From the IMG/VR virus record IMGVR_UViG_3300020149_000046, positions 1-38,538 of that record: DNA of 38,538 nt; one strand, written 5' to 3'. Positions within the stretch are counted from its first letter, which is position 1. Each line of letters opens with the position of its first letter. The stretch is from a virus. Lineage: Duplodnaviria > Caudoviricetes. The translations under genes were made by a program, and so were the position numbers. Below, piece by piece: positions 1 to 29,974 of the stretch. The notes beneath the pieces are model-generated. The model was not told the DNA's origin and did not search any database. It was given only the letters and a program-made list of their open reading frames with translations.

Positions 1-3000
1 CTAGACCACGGCCAGTGCCGCCCAGCCGGTATTGCCGGCGCCGCTCTTCTTGATCCATAGCGCTACCTCGCCGGTCGCCACCTTGTCGCTGTAGAGCGAG
101 CCGACCACCGCCGTGACGACCCCCTCCGGCGAGCCCGAGCCCTTAATCCAGACGATATCGTCCTGGGCGTCCGAGAAGTGCTCGGCCCGGTGGCGCGTGG
201 TGCCGTCGCTGCCGCGCCAGCGGAACCGCATGATGCGGTTGCCGGCGTCCGCGGCGAAGTTGAGTTCGCCGTTGGCTGTGGGACTATCGCCCGAGCCGGG
301 AAACAGCCGCGCCCGCTGGATATTGGCCTGGCGGAACCGCTGCGTGGCCGAGCCCAAATCCTGCACGCCATCACCGCTCGGCAGCAGACCCGCGTCGGTC
401 AGCTTGATTACCTCGATCAGCGCCGCCGCCGCATTCATCACCTTGAACGAAATCGCAGAGCGCAGGGCGTCATTGACGGGCGCGCCGTTGAGCACGGCTT
501 CCACGGCCACGGCCCGGACCAGATTGCCCAGCGCGGAATAGCCATAGCCCTCAAAACTCACCAGCGGGTCGCTGGCCTGGGACGGGGTCGGCGCGTCAAC
601 GACGCCGCGGGCATGCACTCCGCGAAACACCGGGCGACCGCCATAGGCGATGGTCTCAAAACCCGTCGTGGTGTTGTCGGCGACCGTCGCCGGCAGCGAG
701 GCAAAGGGCGACGGGAAATCGCCGAGGTCCGCATAAACCGGATCGAAGCGGCGGCCGGCATAGCTGTTCTTGTAGCTCGAGACCCGGCCGGTGATGCGCG
801 GCGCCGGCTTGTCGGGCGGGGCATAGCGGGCCGAGACCATCGTGGCCATGCCGCGACCCGACACGTAATTGTTAAGGCTCGGCAGATCGAGCGAGAGCAG
901 GCCATAGCTGGCGCTGTTGTCCCAGCGAATGAGCGGCATGTCCTGCACCAGCGAGCCCTGGACATTGTGGAATTCGAGGCCGCTCACCAGGTCGCAGACA
1001 TAAATCTGCCCCAGCGCGTTGTCGGCGCGGCCCTCGAAGTCGCCACTGACATAGCCGGTGCAGCGGTCGAACACCGCGTGGAACAGGGAGGTTTCCTGGG
1101 TCTCCTGCGAATTGTACTCCCCATGCCATTTGCCCTCGGGGATGCGCAGCACTACCGCCGCGCTGATGAACAGGCCGATGCCTTTGAAGCGCTCGACGTG
1201 AAAGCCGCTCATCTCCAGATCGTTGGTTTCCGAATCGTCCTCGTCGAAAATGTCGACGGCCGGCGAAAAGCCGACATAAACGCCGCTGGCGTCGGCGGAA
1301 GCCGGGCGGTCGAGCGTGGCGGTGAGGCCGTCGCCGCTGACCGCGACGATCCTGGCCTGCAGCGGCCGCACGCCATCCGTACTGCCCAGCGCCCCGCCGG
1401 CCGAGCCGGCGCGTGCTTCGAGCACCTTGACATTGCGGCCCACATGGATGGCGGCATCAAGGACCGGCGTATCGAACACCAGGGCGGTCGCCCCCTCGTC
1501 GATCGAGGCAATGGCCCCTTCCCAGCACCCGAAAACAAAGTCGAGATCGTATTCGGCAATCGTGGTGGCCGTGGCCGCCGTGGCACTCTCCACCGATTGC
1601 AGGGTGACCAGCACGCGGCCATTGGGTGTGCGCAACAGCAGCGAGCGACCAACGCAGGCAGCGTCGAAATGATCTTCCGACGCTTCCACCGTCTTCGAGC
1701 CGGCGGTGATCTTGAACAGCACGTCGGTGGTATCGCGCCAGCGCCGGTCATGGCCGGCGCCCCAAACGACGACGTCGCTGAAGTCTGAATTATAGACGGC
1801 CGAGAGGCGCAGGGCCGAATTGCCCTTGTAATGGACGAACTGCAGCCGGTTCATCTTGAGGTCGGTGCAATAGCGCTTCTCGAAGATGATCGGGCCTTCG
1901 CCATCGGGCACGCTGTCGCTCACCACCCAGCTGAGGTCTTCGAGCTCCAGGCGCCGTCCGCGCAGCGAAGGCTCTGCCGCGTCGTGACCGGTCCAGGCGA
2001 CCGAATCCACGCCCGAATAGGTGATGGCGAAAATCGTGCCGCGCACCACGTCCCCGCGGATTTTGAGCGCAAAGGGTGAGACGGTCGGGTCGATGAAGCA
2101 GCTGACCGGACCCTTCTGCACGAAAACGCCGGGTCCAGGCAGCGCCAGCACAATGCCTTTGGCGCTGCAATAGGCCAGCCAGGCTTCGATCGCGGCCGTG
2201 TCGTCGGTGCCCGCGCCGGTCGGATAGCCCGACTCGTTGACGGCGCCGTCGCCGAAGGCCCCGAACATGCGCAGGGTGGGGTTGCGCTCCGCCAACTCGA
2301 ACCAGCTGCCATCGGCGGCCTGGAACTTGGCGCTGTGGGCGGGCTCGGCATCCGTCTTGACGTAGAGTGCCCGCTCCCGCGGGGCGGCGTCCGAGAAGCG
2401 ATCGATTTCGACCGTATCCACGGCCGCTAGGTTCAGGGCGGCGGCAGCGCTGCGCGAATTGGCGCGAAACCGGGAGCGCAGACCGATCATCGAACGAATG
2501 CGGGCATCGGCGTCGAGTTTGGGCACCAGAGCGCCACCCTCGACTTTGTAGAGCACACGGCCGCCCTCGGCCGTCTCGTCGGTGAACACGCCGACGACGT
2601 CGCCTTCGGCATAATCGTCCAGCGCGTCGACGGCATCGGCCTTGGTGTCTGCCCAATGGTCGACGCTGCTGACCTCGGAGGCGGCGATCGCGTCAAGCTT
2701 GGCAGCCAGGGCCGCCGCGGCATCGCCAGCGGCCTGGGTCCGGGCGGTCTGAGCCAGCACCCGTGCGGCGTCAGCCGCCGCGGCATAGCCGCCCGCCTCG
2801 GCCGCTTTGGCTTCGGCCGCCTGGCGGTTGATGATGCTGTCCGTGTCGGTGAGCAGGCGGTAGGCGGAGCCACCGTCGATAAAGGCCACCAGCATGCCCG
2901 CTTTCAGCCCGCCCGGCGGAATTGGCGTTCCGATGGCGCCGAGAAGCGGCTTGGCACCCGCCTCATTGAGGTCGAGCGTCACGGGGCCGGTATTGTCCGC

Positions 3001-12397: not shown

Positions 12398-12905
12398 CGA
12401 CGCTCTCCGCATCGGCCCCGCCCAGCGGAGCCACAAGGAAATCGCCGGTCAGGGCGACGATATCGCTTTCATCATCCTCATCGAGGCCGAGAAAGGCGCG
12501 GCGCGGCAGGGTGACCGACTGACGGGTGACCCAGGCCCCCTCGATCTCGAAGCGCAGGCCTTTGGCCGTCTTGGCGACAATGGTGGCGCCGGTCTGGTGC
12601 GGGCCGGCATAGATGACATTGGTGCCCACCGCCACGCCCTCGTCGCTGGCCTCATGCGTGATCGAGCCCATAAGATTGGAGGTATCGACGAGGGTCTTGC
12701 CGCCGGTCAGCCTGGCGCGCAGCGATTTGGGCCAGGAATTGCCCTCCGGGTCGATGCCCGCCTCGAAGCGTTTTTGGGTCGAAACGGTCAGCATGCGGCC
12801 GATCTCATCAAAGAGCGGCCCAGGCCGGTCCATGCGGGCCAGGGCTTCGCCCAGCGCGGCCAGGGCTTCGTCCTTGCCCGAGATTTCCATGCGCAGGCCG
12901 GCCAT
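12390..12905 (-). CDS. Virion morphogenesis protein (Mu gpG-like)
   Basis: 'RFEAGIDPEGNSW', 'LVDTSNLMGSI', 'VGTNVIYAGPHQTG', 'LPRRAFLGL'. Confidence 0.9.
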   Translation of the reverse strand: MAGLRMEISGKDEALAALGEALARMDRPGPLFDEIGRMLTVSTQKRFEAGIDPEGNSWPKSLRARLTGGKTLVDTSNLMGSITHEASDEGVAVGTNVIYAGPHQTGATIVAKTAKGLRFEIEGAWVTRQSVTLPRRAFLGLDEDDESDIVALTGDFLVAPLGGADAESVDG

Positions 12906-13345
12906 CAGATATAGCCCTTCATCGTCTGGTTGGTCATCGGCCGGTCCGGCGCGGTCATCTGCACGCCGCCGGCCAGGCCCGAGCCGGTGCTTTCGGCGCC
13001 ATCGAGGCCCGGCAGGCGGATGGCGCCCTGGGCAATCAGCAGCAGCGTCTTGAGCGCATCCTTGTAATCGTCGCGGATCTTCTCCGGCACGATGGCGGCA
13101 TGGGCCTTGTAGATGGCCATGCGCTGCGCCAGGTCGATCAGCAGCGGCGGCGGCGCATCGATGGGCAGGCGATAGCGGCCCAGCAGATAGCCGTCGATTT
13201 CGGCACAGGCGTCGGCAATCGCGCGATCGAACAGGCCGCTATCGACGGCCGGCGTCTCCGGCGCCGCATCGGCCCGGTCCGACAGTTCGACGAGGAACCG
13301 TTCGGAATAGCGGTCGATCAGTTGGGCAATGGTGCAATAGGGCAT
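12905..13345 (-). CDS. Mu gp36-like (DUF1320) head-tail adaptor
   Basis: 'MPYCT..LIDRY', 'AIADACAEIDGYL.GRY.LP', 'YKDALKTL..IAQG'. Confidence 0.92.
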   Translation of the reverse strand: MPYCTIAQLIDRYSERFLVELSDRADAAPETPAVDSGLFDRAIADACAEIDGYLLGRYRLPIDAPPPLLIDLAQRMAIYKAHAAIVPEKIRDDYKDALKTLLLIAQGAIRLPGLDGAESTGSGLAGGVQMTAPDRPMTNQTMKGYI

Positions 13346-13351
13346 TGCCAG

Positions 13352-13513
13352 TCAGCCCTCTTTCGCGGCGACGGTGTCCCGCGCGAAGACCCAGCAATCG
13401 CGCCCATCCAGGCGCACGATCTGGGTGTCGTCCGGCTGGACGGCGACGGCATCGATGCGGTCGTGGGCATTGGAGAGGCGATGGTCCACCAGGTCGCCAA
13501 TCTTGCGCTGCAT
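13352..13513 (-). CDS. Small hypothetical protein (53 aa)
   Basis: MQRKIGDLVDHRLSNAHDRIDAV...AAKEG; GAAGGGAG SD upstream. Confidence 0.6.
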   Translation of the reverse strand: MQRKIGDLVDHRLSNAHDRIDAVAVQPDDTQIVRLDGRDCWVFARDTVAAKEG

Positions 13514-13532: not shown

Positions 13533-13578
13533 TGGTCCTCGACCCCAGCATGGAGCGTCAGCCATGCCGGAGCCGAGG
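13533..13578 (-). ncRNA. 17-bp hairpin ending A-CCA (minihelix-like unit)
   Basis: CCTCGGCTCCGGCATGG-CTGACGCT-CCATGCTGGGGTCGAGG-A-CCA; 3 G.U pairs that work only on the minus strand; preceded by GAATA. Confidence 0.55.
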
Positions 13579-13620
13579 TATTCGCCGTGGCGCCGGAGTG
13601 GGCAGACCATGGCAAACTGG

Positions 13621-13717
13621 TGGCGGATGGCGGGCTTTGCCCCGTGTCTCAGGTCTCCAATGTCCCTTGCGGGAGAGGTTGACCGCCGTGGGCCTTGCGA
13701 GCCGTACCGGACCATCC
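13621..13717 (-). ncRNA. 97-nt multibranched structured RNA ending G-CCA
   Basis: Closing stem GGATGG/CCATCC then GCCA; arms capped by GCAA loops (e.g. TCCC-GCAA-GGGA); GGTC/GACC and CGGG/CCCG stems. Confidence 0.55.
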
Positions 13718-13726
13718 TGGTTATTC

Positions 13727-13791
13727 TGGAAGAGCCGCCCTGCCGCTGCAGCCCGCTCCTTCAATGACGCGCAGATCGGCAGGCGCGCTCT
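13727..13791 (-). ncRNA. Irregular hairpin unit ending T-CCA
   Basis: AGAGC..CTGCCG..CTGC / GCAG..CGGCAG..GCTCT then TCCA; flanked by GAATA spacers. Confidence 0.45.
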
Positions 13792-13799
13792 GGGTATTC

Positions 13800-13877
13800 T
13801 GGTTGCGGGGGCAGGATTCGCACCCGGCGATCTCCGAGGGTATGAACCTGGTGGGATGGCCACTTCCCCACCCCGCG
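13800..13877 (-). tRNA. Degenerate tRNA-fMet-like gene (anticodon CAT), possibly pseudo
   Basis: CGCGGGG...CCCCGCA-ACCA acceptor with C1:A72 mismatch, D stem GGGA/TCCC, loop TTCATAC; altered T arm and bulged anticodon stem. Confidence 0.8.
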
Positions 13878-13883
13878 AAACTG

Positions 13884-14390
13884 TCAGTCGTTAAGCACCA
13901 CCGTCAGGGCCGGGTCGGCCTTGAGGCGGTCGAAGGTCCCTTTGCTGACACGCAACACCTGCCACGCCTCGACGAAGTGCCCGCCGCAACGGTAGCGGCC
14001 GGCCTTGGGGCCGCGCACGCTGACCTCGCGCAGCGCCTCGGCGGGCACATCCGCATCAACCGGCAGCACGACAGCTTGCGTATCCGGCCGGTCGGCGGGC
14101 GGGGTTTCCTGCGTCCCGACCGGCGTGGCCAGGTCAGGCAGGTCGGGCAGCGCAATAACGGCGGCGACCGCCGCTTCGACCAGCCCGATCGTCTCGGCCT
14201 GTTTGGCCTGGGCATTGTGTTTGTCAGCGTCGCTGGCATCCGCCGCCAGCGCCGCGATCGCCGCCTGCGCTTCGGCCGCCGCCACGGTGACCTGGCGCAA
14301 TGTGTCGCGTGCAGCCATCCACTCGGCCAGGATGCCGGCGGGCGGCGAAATCTTGGGGGCAGCAGCCTTTGCGGTGGGACGTTTGGCCAT
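13884..14390 (-). CDS. Mu gp35/HI1506-like protein
   Basis: Start MAKRPTAK with AGGAGG SD; C-terminal 'GRYRCGGHF...RLKADPALTV'; follows major capsid. Confidence 0.7.
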   Translation of the reverse strand: MAKRPTAKAAAPKISPPAGILAEWMAARDTLRQVTVAAAEAQAAIAALAADASDADKHNAQAKQAETIGLVEAAVAAVIALPDLPDLATPVGTQETPPADRPDTQAVVLPVDADVPAEALREVSVRGPKAGRYRCGGHFVEAWQVLRVSKGTFDRLKADPALTVVLND

Positions 14391-14517: not shown

Positions 14518-15417
14518 CTAGGAGGCGAGCCAGGGCACGACGACCAGCTTGGCCGTGCCGCGCCACGGATTGGTCTCGCCGCCGGCGGTGTTTTCCGAAT
14601 TGAGCAGCTTGCGCCCGGCTTCTTCATTGGCAGGGCCGACAATGAGCGTGTCGGGCATGACGCCAATCGGCCGGCCATAATCGCCCTTCATGCTGGTGAG
14701 GGCCTGCCGCGCCGCCTTGTAGCGGGAGGCTTCCAGCGTCTGCTTGGAGCCCCAGCACCACTGCCAGAAGCCATAGCCGACGGTCCAGCGGCCATCGGCG
14801 CCATAGACGAATTCGCCATTCATAAAGACCCGATCGTCGCGCGGATCGTCCTTGGCGACGAACTGGGCCTCCTTGCGCATTTGCAGGATGATCGGGTTGA
14901 TCGGCTGTTTGGAGTCGATCAAGAACCAGGGCTCCCCGGAACCGGCATCGGTATTGGCTACCGAGACCACTTCGCCCGCTTCGTTCAAGACCGGATGGTC
15001 AGTGTCGAAAAAGCTCTGCTTGTCGTAGCAGTCGGTCGAAAAGCCGTTCCGGAGCGCAGCGAAGACCAGCATATCCTTGGCTGCGCCGACCGCCCGGCCC
15101 ATGGCCGTGAAGCGCGGGGCGAAAATGCCTTCCATATCGTCTTCGATATTCTTGCGCGGGACCGCGATCGTGTCTTCCCAGTCCTCGTTTTCCAGGAAGT
15201 AGTTGTAGGCCTTGAGCGCATTGATCTGGCGCGGGCCGACCCACTTCTTCATGCCGGGGATGTCACCCAGCCAGGCATATTGGTTGGCGGCCCCGACCGA
15301 CGGCACCTGCGTGGCCACCAGCGGCCACTGGCTCGGCGCCTGGGCCAGGCCGTCGGCAAAAGCGGTGGAGAAGCCGGTATTGACGGCGGCCAGCACGGCC
15401 GAATTGATGACTTTCAT
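14518..15417 (-). CDS. Major capsid protein (Mu gpT family)
   Basis: 'YAWLGDIPGMKKWVGPR', 'CYDKQSFFDTDHPV', 'GYGFWQ'. Confidence 0.96.
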   Translation of the reverse strand: MKVINSAVLAAVNTGFSTAFADGLAQAPSQWPLVATQVPSVGAANQYAWLGDIPGMKKWVGPRQINALKAYNYFLENEDWEDTIAVPRKNIEDDMEGIFAPRFTAMGRAVGAAKDMLVFAALRNGFSTDCYDKQSFFDTDHPVLNEAGEVVSVANTDAGSGEPWFLIDSKQPINPIILQMRKEAQFVAKDDPRDDRVFMNGEFVYGADGRWTVGYGFWQWCWGSKQTLEASRYKAARQALTSMKGDYGRPIGVMPDTLIVGPANEEAGRKLLNSENTAGGETNPWRGTAKLVVVPWLAS

Positions 15418-17142: not shown

Positions 17143-17583
17143 TCAACACCAGTTCCGGCGCTTGCCCTCCCAGGGCCGCGCCAGTTCTTCGGCGATCAGC
17201 ACCTCGCCCAAGTCAACACCGCCAACCCGCACATAGGCCAGCGTCCGTCCATTTCGATCAAAACCCGTCCGCCCCAGATAGAGCCGCCCGCCGCTCAGCA
17301 GTTCGGCCAGGCGCTGGGCAGCCACATGGCCCAGGCGCAATTCGGCGTCGCATTTGGCCGACTGGATTTCCGGCGTGTCGATATTGACGATGCGCACCTT
17401 CTCGCCACGCACCCAGAATGTGTCGCCATCGACCACGCAGGTGACCCGCTTGCCGCTGCCGCACTGCTCATAATCGAATGCAGCGGCGGCAATAGCCAGC
17501 ACAGCCCAGATGGCCATCGAGGCGAGGACAATGCGCGGCACGACAATCAAGGGGCGACGGGCGATCTTTCGAAGCTCCTTCAA
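17143..17583 (-). CDS. Thermonuclease (SNase-like) with N-terminal signal/TM segment; start uncertain
   Basis: 'VVDGDTF', 'VRIVNIDTPE', 'DRNGRTLAYV', 'LIAEELARPW'. Confidence 0.9.
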   Translation of the reverse strand: MKELRKIARRPLIVVPRIVLASMAIWAVLAIAAAAFDYEQCGSGKRVTCVVDGDTFWVRGEKVRIVNIDTPEIQSAKCDAELRLGHVAAQRLAELLSGGRLYLGRTGFDRNGRTLAYVRVGGVDLGEVLIAEELARPWEGKRRNWC

Positions 17584-27864: not shown

Positions 27865-28184
27865 GGTCCGGCTCCGCCAGCCATGAAGTCGGTCCAGAAG
27901 CGCAACTGCGCGGCCACCATGGCGGGCAGTCGGCCATCGGCTTCCCGCCGCGCCAGCAGCGCGGCCAGCCGCACATGCAGATAATTCGCACCAGCAGAAA
28001 AGCCGGCCTGCTCACAGGCGCGAACCAGCAGCCCGCCATGGGTCACCACCAGGCCGTCCGGCAGCCGCACCAACATGGCAGCACGGTCCCGGTTGTTTTC
28101 CGCATTGAGGATATGCGCTGCCGGCGGAAACATGTGTTCCTGGCCCTGCCTGACGCCGCGGATCGTCGGCAATGGATGGTTCAT
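27861..28184 (-). CDS. Hypothetical protein (107 aa)
   Basis: ATGA coupling on both sides. Confidence 0.65.
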   Translation of the reverse strand: MNHPLPTIRGVRQGQEHMFPPAAHILNAENNRDRAAMLVRLPDGLVVTHGGLLVRACEQAGFSAGANYLHVRLAALLARREADGRLPAMVAAQLRFWTDFMAGGAGP

Positions 28185-29974
28185 GCCGGACCTCCCGCCT
28201 GCCGGCGGAAGCGCAGCCCCATCCGCCGTGCTTCCGCCGCGACGGACGGATATGGCCGGCCGATCCGCGCGGCGACATCGACCAGCGCCAGGTCCTTTTC
28301 CGCCGCATCGGTCAAGAGCTGCCGCTCCTGCGGGGTCCAGGCGCGCCGCTGGCGGAAACCGAGCAAGCTGGCCTTGGTGGCGACGGCCGGGCGGGGACGC
28401 CCCAGTTCGGCAGCGATCTGCGCCACCGGCACATGCTGCTTGTAGCGCTCCTCGAGGATGGCGATCTCGGCCGGCGTCCAGGACTCGGCGGCCCTGTTGA
28501 CCCCATTTTTCTGCGCGAACTTGTAGATCGCCGTAATCCCGCGCTCGAAGCCTGCCGCTTTCAGGTCCTGCAGAATGGCCGCATAGGTCTTGCCCGCCTC
28601 GAGTCCGGCCAGGGCAATGGCCTTTTCCGGGTCTGACCAGTATTTTACCCGATCGCGCGTGAGCCCCAGGGCAATGGCCCGCATCTGGATGGCAACGCGG
28701 CCGCGCTGATAGCCGGCATCGGCCAGCAATTGCACGATATCGAATATCCGCACCTCGCGTTTATAGGCATCGGCGACGATCTGGTCTTCGTCATCGCTCC
28801 ATTGCTGGGCGGCGCGCGCGCTGGCAAAACCCAGGCTCTGCGCCCGCGAGGAAATATTGCCCAGCGAACGATGCCGATAGCCGGCCCTGGCCAGGTCCTC
28901 GGCAATCTGGCGTACGGTGCGTCCGCGCTGATAGCCCGCCGCGATGATCCGGTCTTCTTCGGCCAGGAAGCCGCGCCGGCCTGCATTTGGTACGGGCGCA
29001 GGCACCGCATCGGGCAGAGCGGAGAGGAGTCCGGCCACGCCCGCCGCACCCAGATCGGCGGGCGGCACGATGTCCGGCGCCCGGCCGCGATGCGCGCTTC
29101 TGACCGGGCCGCCGCGGAAACGCACGCGCCGCGGGCCGGCGATCGCTGGCCCGATGGCCAGGAATTCGCCATCCGCCAGCGTGCGCAGCGCCGCCGCGCG
29201 GGCGGCCGTAAACCCCAGAAGGCCGCCAGCGCGCTCCAGATCGCGGTCGAACATCGTCCGGCCGACAATGACATTGGTGGCCTTGGCGATGAGCGACTTG
29301 CTGGTTTCCGCGATGCGCTGGGTGGCGATGACCGCGCACAAGCCCCGTTTGCGCCCCCTGCCCATCAGTTCGGCCAGGGCAACGATGGCCCCTTTGCGCG
29401 CCGCCGGGGTGGCATCGCCATTGTCGTAATACGGCGCCAGGGCCTGGACTTCATCGATCAGCACCAGCATGGGCTGCCAATGAGCCGCCGGCACCTCGAC
29501 AAGGGCAGTTGCCAGGCGCGCCACCAGCCCCAATCGTGCATCGGCCGATGCGTCGGAAAGGTCGAGGACCGCCGAATAGCGGTGCTGGCGGATATGCTGC
29601 GCCAGCGCCTCGGGGCCCACCCGTTCGGCCTCCGCCGCACTGATGATTGCAAGATCGCAAACCTCGGCCAGGGTGACGAATTCGCCCTCGCCATCGATGA
29701 GCAATTGCTGGATATGACCGAAGGCCTGCTCGAACAGCCGCCGCAGCAACATGGACTTGCCGGCGCCGGAATTGCCCTGGATCAGCAGGCGGCCGGCAAT
29801 GAGCCGGGGCAGGTCCAGCACCAGCGGCTGGCCATTGTCGATCTGCATGCCCAGGGTGAGGGCGCCGGGTGCCGGCGCCTCTTCGCTGTAATCCGCACTC
29901 TGCGCCTGCCGCTCGGCGATCGTGGCGGGATGGCGGGCGATAAGATCGTTCAATTGCTGTCGATTGAGAGCCAT
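28181..29974 (-). CDS. HerA/FtsK-superfamily ATPase fused to five Myb/GcrA-like HTH repeats
   Basis: Walker A 'GNSGAGKS', 'LIDGEGEF', Walker B 'LVLIDEVQ', 'GRGRKRG', 'IATQR'; C-terminal W(S/T)xxE repeats. Confidence 0.85.
   Translation of the reverse strand: MALNRQQLNDLIARHPATIAERQAQSADYSEEAPAPGALTLGMQIDNGQPLVLDLPRLIAGRLLIQGNSGAGKSMLLRRLFEQAFGHIQQLLIDGEGEFVTLAEVCDLAIISAAEAERVGPEALAQHIRQHRYSAVLDLSDASADARLGLVARLATALVEVPAAHWQPMLVLIDEVQALAPYYDNGDATPAARKGAIVALAELMGRGRKRGLCAVIATQRIAETSKSLIAKATNVIVGRTMFDRDLERAGGLLGFTAARAAALRTLADGEFLAIGPAIAGPRRVRFRGGPVRSAHRGRAPDIVPPADLGAAGVAGLLSALPDAVPAPVPNAGRRGFLAEEDRIIAAGYQRGRTVRQIAEDLARAGYRHRSLGNISSRAQSLGFASARAAQQWSDDEDQIVADAYKREVRIFDIVQLLADAGYQRGRVAIQMRAIALGLTRDRVKYWSDPEKAIALAGLEAGKTYAAILQDLKAAGFERGITAIYKFAQKNGVNRAAESWTPAEIAILEERYKQHVPVAQIAAELGRPRPAVATKASLLGFRQRRAWTPQERQLLTDAAEKDLALVDVAARIGRPYPSVAAEARRMGLRFRRQAGGPA

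Follow-up and report, generated by a model that had tools for sequence, protein, structure and literature searches.

The closest described counterparts of the RNAs reported here include Mu-gpT-DE and the RAGATH motifs, which we take to be orphan structured RNAs located near ribozyme-associated genes of Mu-like phages. More generally, bacterial ribozymes associate most with Mu-like phage genes and cluster together according to the available part of PMC10085705, which calls the reason for this crowding of structured RNAs and ribozymes around Mu-like head genes unknown, and tandem hammerheads are documented in the excerpted text of PMC3088659. Two further classes, pistol and theta ribozymes, are compared with our RNAs below. 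Our literature search returned no description of units 2 and 3, the two main motifs of this study; they may be listed as unnamed candidates in the supplement of PMC5737381 or in the alignments of PMC10690425.

The head operon and its RNA cassette

The window analysed here is a stretch of 38,538 nucleotides corresponding to one whole virus record; a longer contig with the identical sequence (L024) was excluded from all counts. PHROG and Pfam scans identify a Mu-like transposable phage with a long-tail module, whose minus-strand genes include transposase, Gam, a late activator, terminase, portal, protease, the gpT capsid protein, gp36, and tail proteins. The major capsid gene gpT (14518..15417, minus strand; PF10124, E 4e-115; phrog_371) precedes a gp35-like gene of 168 aa (13884..14390, minus strand), which shows synteny with the FluMu_N genes of relatives and whose C-terminal domain (residues 114-168) gives an Atlas structure lead to FluMu_N clusters (TM 0.71); no Pfam match and no PDB relative were found for the protein. 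The RNA cassette lies in a 370-base gap that starts from the stop of this gene at 13884 and ends before an ORF of 53 codons (13352..13513, minus strand), which has a strong ribosome-binding site and is located 3' of unit 4 and ahead of the gp36 head-tail adaptor gene (12905..13345, minus strand; PF07030, E 3e-29). This small ORF has no Pfam match and Atlas matches that are all below 0.9, i.e. weak leads, and could represent accessory cargo. Neither a sigma-70 promoter nor a minus-strand terminator was detected between 13300 and 14600, from which we infer co-transcription with the head genes; the cassette is thus likely transcribed within the abundant late head mRNA. Elsewhere in the window, a staphylococcal-nuclease-like gene (17143-17583) is flanked by minor head and protease genes, and a 597-aa early gene (28181-29974) combines a D5-like regulator domain with a terminase-like ATPase stretch.

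The initial annotation described the cassette as a late-operon array of four tRNA mimics, each ending in a stem, one unpaired base and CCA, with a repeated GAATA leader. All four units are present on the minus strand as annotated, and the 13-base junction reported to occur twice does so, at 13802-13790 and 13729-13717, with one mismatch. The array of separate structured RNAs, the leader and the tRNA-fMet-like head of the array stand, whereas the reading of units 2-4 as CCA-ended tRNA mimics does not: NCCA ends all four units here, but this ending is not kept in relatives. The three GAATA words are likewise in place, the third being predicted to be paired in a spacer hairpin. Three of the eight GAATAM words of the window fall within about 230 bases, with a Poisson probability of about 2e-6 per bin, or about 7e-4 over 335 bins (a post hoc figure); this clustering exceeds chance.

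Compared with shuffled sequences, units 1, 2 and 3 and the whole block show fold z values of -0.88, -0.77, -0.43 and -0.55, respectively, and better folding than that of shuffles is restricted to unit 4 and the spacer hairpin, so that the case for structure in units 1-3 is made by covariation and not by energy. The comparison with relatives indicates that the object is real and partly new: not four tRNA mimics, but a tRNA relic followed by representatives of two mobile families of phage RNAs that are uncatalogued and have a leader in common. The cassette is very probably a string of independent RNA modules occupying an accessory-cargo slot behind the capsid genes.

Unit 1 (13800..13877, minus strand) is a degenerate tRNA-fMet(CAU), identified from blastn, relaxed ARAGORN and the tRNA-Met genes of relatives. 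Like phage tRNA-fMet such as that of Rhizobium phage RR1-A, whose tRNA-Met it matches by blastn (E 1e-6), it has a CAU anticodon, an unpaired 1:72 position, an initiator acceptor stem and an encoded CCA. It differs from these relatives by one additional base in the anticodon stem, and by one additional base and a mismatch in the T arm. It falls below the default ARAGORN and Rfam thresholds: a default ARAGORN run finds nothing and an Rfam scan of the window gives no match, both searches having been suggested with the initial annotation, whereas ARAGORN relaxed to 95% recovers unit 1 and the print-out at 80% labels it 'possible pseudogene'. Intact phage copies of the tRNA share its variants in the T loop and the anticodon loop. 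Unit 1 may be non-functional, or its two extra bases may be assembly errors.

Of 84 viral gpT loci, 7 have an intact tRNA-Met gene located between gpT and gp36 (L004, L040, L066-L069, L106), and in L102 one is found just 5' of gpT. The tRNA-Met genes of L009, L066, L102, L106, L128, L157 and L167 present a recurring anticodon-loop change at position 38, often accompanied by one at position 32, which is shared with unit 1, and those of L009, L021, L216 and L278 have G55 T loops. Phage tRNAs have been proposed to counter anticodon nucleases, and the available portion of the same article states that phages generally avoid tRNA-fMet where the anticodon itself is the target (PMC10264068); on that account, a nuclease-countering role of unit 1 receives limited support here.

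The unit 2 and unit 3 families

Unit 2 (13728..13787, minus strand) corresponds, from model match and pair counts, to two hairpins, P1 (13787-13783/13772-13768) and P2 (13759-13752/13734-13728), connected by a loop-loop pseudoknot of 6 bp (13782-13777/13745-13740). Pattern scans matched 5 + 38 viral and 6 metagenome stretches, and 7 of 301 genomes, of which 2 were real. From 41 deduplicated candidates, 4 without P1 or pseudoknot were removed, which leaves a family of 37 distinct phage RNAs including that of the window.

The P2 helix was free of any search pattern, and 176 of its 185 cells pair; in 2000 shuffles the mean was 116 and the highest value 135, and sliding the helix off register leaves 60-97 paired cells. 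When 35 of the 36 members other than the window are aligned, pairing is seen in 96.6% of cells, with 64 double changes, a result that none of 500 shuffles equals, and the link between pseudoknot and P2 consists of five fixed bases in 35/35 aligned members. One pair of the pseudoknot is double-changed in three members and another is added by the window. In P1, compensatory changes are never seen and the core was partly fixed by the pattern, so the argument for this helix is its invariance. A model trained without the window scores the window at 60 bits (E about 1e-11).

The long hairpin initially drawn for unit 2 is the nested minimum-energy fold of the window; it keeps the pseudoknot helix and excludes both P1 and P2, which opens the possibility of a two-state switch. 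Among the nested minimum-energy folds of the 37 members, P1 and P2 appear together in 22 and the long hairpin in 13. In the family fold the two Cs of the CCA are paired in P2, which contradicts the description of unit 2 as a stem followed by one unpaired base and CCA.

Ten of the 37 members are located directly 3' of a tRNA-like CCA, and in 26 a ribosome-binding site and start codon follow 12-38 bases on. The 33 downstream ORFs include 8 gp36, 9 HNH or small terminase, 2 minor tail and 1 Acb2/Tad1-like genes, and 4 of the ORFs follow tail-tube or head-closure regions. A long open frame covers unit 2 in 8/37 members with mixed phases, i.e. with no consistent frame. Cultured carriers are Paracoccus phage vB_PbeS_Pben1, POA1180 and Mwe-Yong1. 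The last (L007) is recorded from Microcystis while the other named carriers come from Alphaproteobacteria, and its host label may merit checking. In L026, a tRNA-like element that had gone undetected (730-830, minus strand) lies directly 5' of unit 2.

Unit 3 (13625..13717, minus strand) is a multi-way junction, also identified from model match and pair counts, with a 6-bp closing helix P1, a P2/P3 arm that has a GNRA tip and a pyrimidine-pyrimidine internal loop, an arm of variable sequence length or form, and a short P4 whose loop is a Y-G-closed NNA triloop. At least 119 stretches (an estimated 200) were matched by the scan and gave 110 distinct cores, of which 104 were retained, the window being included by exception because of one P2 mismatch; P1 and P4 were found in 89, and minimal members are shorter than 80 bases. 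Outside the pairs fixed by the pattern, P2 varies between U-A (76) and C-G (28), and P3 shows G-C, G-U, U-A and A-U pairs. The opposed pyrimidines are U.C in 86 and C.U in 18 of the 104 members, with no exception, and in 104/104 the tip reads as a GNRA loop that is closed by C-G and has a bulged pyrimidine. Aligning 43 of the 62 short-insert members gives 99.9% paired cells and 109 double changes, a figure that is inflated for P1, since rows were picked for having it, and unaffected for P2 and P3. The model trained without the window scores the window at 45 bits (E about 2e-12). Neither family has a named match: no Rfam 15 model fits unit 2 or unit 3, in line with the initial annotation, which recognised no named family, and Rfam scans of 20 loci of each family return only tRNA at credible score.

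Genes neighbouring unit 3 include those of capsid, gp35, gp36 (9 of the 57 ORFs located downstream), terminase, primase, CII-like proteins and methylase. Unit 3 lies within an open, coding-scoring frame in one phase in 12 of 99 loci, compared to 2 and 0 in the other phases, and Pfam confirms real proteins for 7 of the 16 tested. It is found in frame between HHH_5 and FluMu_N in the gp35-like proteins of L034 and L176, and inside the GcrA match in L234; the leader of the in-frame copies is mostly intact. This tolerance of unit 3 and its leader within genes is more in keeping with an element that binds passively than with an efficient cut site.

In-frame insertion into unstructured linkers also recalls the Rickettsia and Wolbachia repeats, as far as these are described in the available part of PMC2996958, and the window's unit 2 is surrounded by a 13-base near-direct repeat; both features would be expected of selfish mobile palindromic elements bringing no benefit to the phage. 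We consider this very unlikely, given a single copy per locus, a sense-strand bias that extends to the copies between genes, conserved non-canonical pairs, and no mobilising enzyme seen adjacent.

Unit 4 (13533..13578, minus strand) is a true 17-bp hairpin followed by ACCA, with a fold z of -6.65 against shuffles. It follows the spacer hairpin that pairs the third GAATA (13580..13617, minus strand; z -3.15), for which no homologue was found in the fetched loci. No homologue of unit 4 was found either, in the fetched loci or among 109 other pattern matches (14 of 64 parts scanned). A continuous helix of 10 bp or more is present no further than 95 bases from the gp36 start in 20 of 68 relatives, compared to 11 of 210 coding windows, and unit 4 appears from this comparison to be a hairpin of a generic pre-gp36 kind. 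In four other loci this slot is occupied by additional intergenic RNAs that look structured and are uncatalogued (L103:3815-3930, L079:3829-4010, L029:3894-4020, L067:3725-3870). Among 20 gpT loci scanned with Rfam, only tRNA was credible, and the slot RNAs had no match at gathering score.

These alignments bear directly on the proposal that RNase P and tRNA-processing enzymes release four tRNA mimics with CCA ends. In its favor, all four units end in NCCA in this genome, and three non-tRNA units ending in CCA would be a low-odds coincidence that is not fully explained; CCA is also enriched near the end of P2 in the unit 2 family (within -2..+10 in 21/37 members, versus 8 and 4 in control windows), an enrichment that often includes the paired CC of P2. 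Nevertheless, the strict stem-N-CCA arrangement occurs in only 3/37 unit 2 members (the window is uncounted, its Cs being paired), in 12/89 unit 3 members measured from the pairing end or 10/89 with a 6-bp P1, versus 6.1 expected from composition, and NCCA follows 2/20 of the long pre-gp36 hairpins. The folds are unlike tRNA, and the T-loop word TTCRA is absent from the cassette. The conservation on which the tRNA-mimic reading depended thus exists as covarying families for units 2 and 3, in which the CCA end is not kept, and no homologue was found for unit 4. For units 2-4, this reading appears largely refuted by the comparison with relatives, and we regard it as extremely improbable. The decoy or mRNA-processing roles that the initial annotation also proposed would operate by way of the leader and the folds and not by CCA mimicry.

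The common leader and the accessory slot

Leader 1 (13788..13799, minus strand) is a single-stranded AAUACC-type sequence, recognised from the family leader counts, that also forms the 3' trailer of the tRNA, and leader 2 (13718..13726, minus strand) is a variant with TAA, which is found in 10/104 unit 3 members. Together they constitute the 13-base near-direct repeat around unit 2, which may record an insertion at the leader. AUACC or AUAACC is located 5' of 31/37 unit 2 and 78/104 unit 3 members, at 2 to 8 bases from P1, whereas the full GAATA is present only in 14 of the 37 and 38 of the 104. The leader is likewise present 3' of the CCA in 12 of 24 tRNA-Met genes of phages, most of which were found via the leader or the motifs, and of 3/13 among those found otherwise. 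A third module with the same leader is observed 3' of tRNA-fMet in L004 (4487-4585) and directly 5' of unit 3, in frame in gp35-like linkers, in L034 (3683-3790), L176 (786-880) and L280 (180-280). Its position beside the tRNA or unit 3 indicates that mixed arrays recur; the combination of units 2 and 3 was not seen outside the window, in 34 and 100 loci, respectively. An AAUACC leader common to unrelated folds is real, and these folds are used mix-and-match in many phage operons.

Such a leader could serve RNA processing in cis, RNase E cutting the AU leader and the fold shielding the new 5' end, which would set the ratio of capsid to downstream protein. The leader presents an A at +1 followed by a U at +2, within RNA that is GC-rich, and in this it matches the RNase E preference given in the available part of PMC6238624, which also provides the puf operon as a precedent for RNase E processing. 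The position of the leader after the CCA of half of the 24 tRNA-Met genes is consistent with this role, as is that of unit 2 after a tRNA-like CCA (10/37) and before a start codon (26/37). However, the modules occur in only 2-5% of relatives with equal gene order, the in-frame copies of unit 3 retain their leader, and the invariant cores exceed the needs of a stabilising hairpin. Units 2 and 3 were also not found as a common host element (no match for one and a single weak match for the other in 151 genomes, with about 30 candidates scored per genome; a weak test). RNase E processing explains the leader best in our ranking, yet as an account of the modules we find it rather doubtful.

Units 2 and 3 are accessory and patchy: of 87 gpT loci, 4 carry unit 3 and 2 carry unit 2. 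The window contains one copy of each, the other phages having been read as short loci. The modules are located after capsid, gp35, tail tube and head closure genes, before HNH or terminase genes, and close to primase and CII-like genes. Where a strand could be called, their orientation is sense in 73/78 unit 3 and 32/32 unit 2 loci; calls were made with a codon model trained on the window genes, which gave none in 21/99 and 4/36 loci.

Acb2/Tad1-like genes are found in 5/84 gpT loci, and PF24729 was matched by 5 of the 21 proteins tested. Such sponge genes are seen in the gp35-gp36 slot or right behind RNA modules at L034:4208-4564, L066:3793-4038, L133:979-1431, L189:729-962 and L207:595-828 (minus strand), and also in L037, L041, L055, L170 and L176. 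One lies directly 3' of unit 3 in L189 and L207, of unit 2 in L133, and of the tRNA in L066.

The sense-strand bias would also be expected of nut- or put-type antitermination, in which a boxA-like leader, a variable spacer and a fold make RNA polymerase processive through long operons. The series of leader, spacer and GNRA hairpin resembles lambda nut, and 9 of the 33 ORFs tested downstream of unit 2 are HNH or small terminase genes, with which a late operon usually begins. We judge antitermination quite unlikely, as many copies lie mid-operon, after and not before the untranslated tRNA, or inside ORFs; tandem arrays of differing folds would be unexpected, and no partner protein co-occurring throughout was seen among the neighbours.

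Possible roles and relation to known systems

Our best guess, which we hold tentatively, is that units 2 and 3 act as protein-binding RNA decoys against host defences, made at the abundance of capsid mRNA. The late head mRNA would carry the RNA modules at this abundance, RNase P and, at the AU leader, RNase E may release the tRNA, and a host RNA-binding or RNA-cutting effector would bind leader and fold and be titrated by them, whether they are cut from the mRNA or not. Sponge proteins work by amount. We favor the decoy because the slot is shared with tRNA-fMet and Acb2/Tad1-like genes, both counter-defence cargo that would act by amount, and because the modules are rare, interchangeable, on the sense strand and tolerated in ORFs. 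Phage RNAs that mimic antitoxin RNA (pseudo-antitoxins) or CRISPR repeats (RNA anti-CRISPRs) reportedly offer a precedent. The tertiary signatures of the cores, i.e. the U.C/C.U swap, the GNRA tip and a pseudoknot with compensatory changes, are consistent with a binding role.

Several observations weigh against the decoy. Acb2-like genes are no commoner near the motifs (6/104 for unit 3, 1/37 for unit 2) than among gpT loci in general (5/84), flank lengths differing between these sets. The leader fits the RNase E preference equally well, and the start codon soon after unit 2 in 26/37 members suits a role in cis. The window's own tRNA looks damaged, suggesting that this copy of the array may be decaying. 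Lastly, the slots are a known hotspot of self-cleaving ribozymes, according to what is available of PMC10085705.

This address and the invariant cores of units 2 and 3 are best explained, in our ranking, if one or both units are self-cleaving ribozymes belonging to new classes and cutting the late mRNA, with unit 2 trimming the tRNA 3' end as theta ribozymes do. The association of bacterial ribozymes with Mu-like genes argues for this, as do the helix order of unit 2, which is that of pistol minus P3, and its location right behind a tRNA in 10/37 members. Nevertheless, no Rfam ribozyme model fits the window or the 20 loci scanned for each family, no Rfam ribozyme was found in the 20 gpT loci scanned, unit 2 lacks the P3 and GU junction of pistol, the genes with in-frame unit 3 stay open, and the leader-to-P1 spacing varies. 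The hammerhead core words are CUGANGA and GAAA; these cores are absent from the cassette, and both words occur together in 2/104 unit 3 and 0/37 unit 2 members. A ribozyme function is in our opinion unlikely. Returning to the decoy and to the wider picture, it is plausible, if a little short of probable, that proteobacterial phages carry a mobile toolkit of unrelated compact AAUACC-flagged RNAs, strung in abundant transcripts or inside genes, at least one family of which is a counter-defence sponge or a new self-cleaving ribozyme class.

Other known RNAs were considered and set aside. An HDV-like or theta ribozyme, with its nested double pseudoknot, catalytic C in J4/2 and cut at most 5 bases from the tRNA end, has a different helix order and gave no Rfam match. 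SAM-II, c-di-GMP-I, twister-sister and TwoAYGGAY, considered for their likeness, had no Rfam match either. The RNA in section 8 of 10.64898/2026.09.22.753630 is, from the available part of that text, a different RNA.

Among described systems, Mu-gpT-DE (RF03012, 10.1101/2020.02.04.933952, in its available part) and RAGATH share with units 2 and 3 the same neighbourhood and small covarying folds. Their models, among Rfam motifs only, gave no match at E <= 10 in the window or at E <= 1 in 40 member loci. To our knowledge, a leader common to several folds, mixed arrays and in-frame insertion are not features of Mu-gpT-DE or RAGATH. As in pistol (PMC4604425, available part), the P1 loop of unit 2 forms pairs with the segment that follows P2's left side, in a phage context; pistol has in addition a P3 and a GU cleavage junction between P3 and P2, and the P1 loop is 4 bases longer in unit 2. 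Theta ribozymes, as presented in the accessible part of PMC10879173, resemble unit 2 in being structured RNAs directly 3' of a phage tRNA, whereas unit 2 has no HDV double pseudoknot, its first helix starts 8-12 bases after the CCA, and most copies are without a tRNA. The protein-coding palindromic elements of Rickettsia and Wolbachia (PMC2996958, available part) lie in frame in unstructured protein segments, a property shared by unit 3 only; in contrast to them, units 2 and 3 are found on phage contigs, are sense-biased and mostly intergenic, and have conserved tertiary-type features. What units 2 and 3 add to these systems is a pair of uncatalogued families that together exceed 140 members, have structures supported by covariation, and show a leader common across folds; the folds inserted in frame also explain some of the odd low-complexity linkers in gp35- and GcrA-like proteins.
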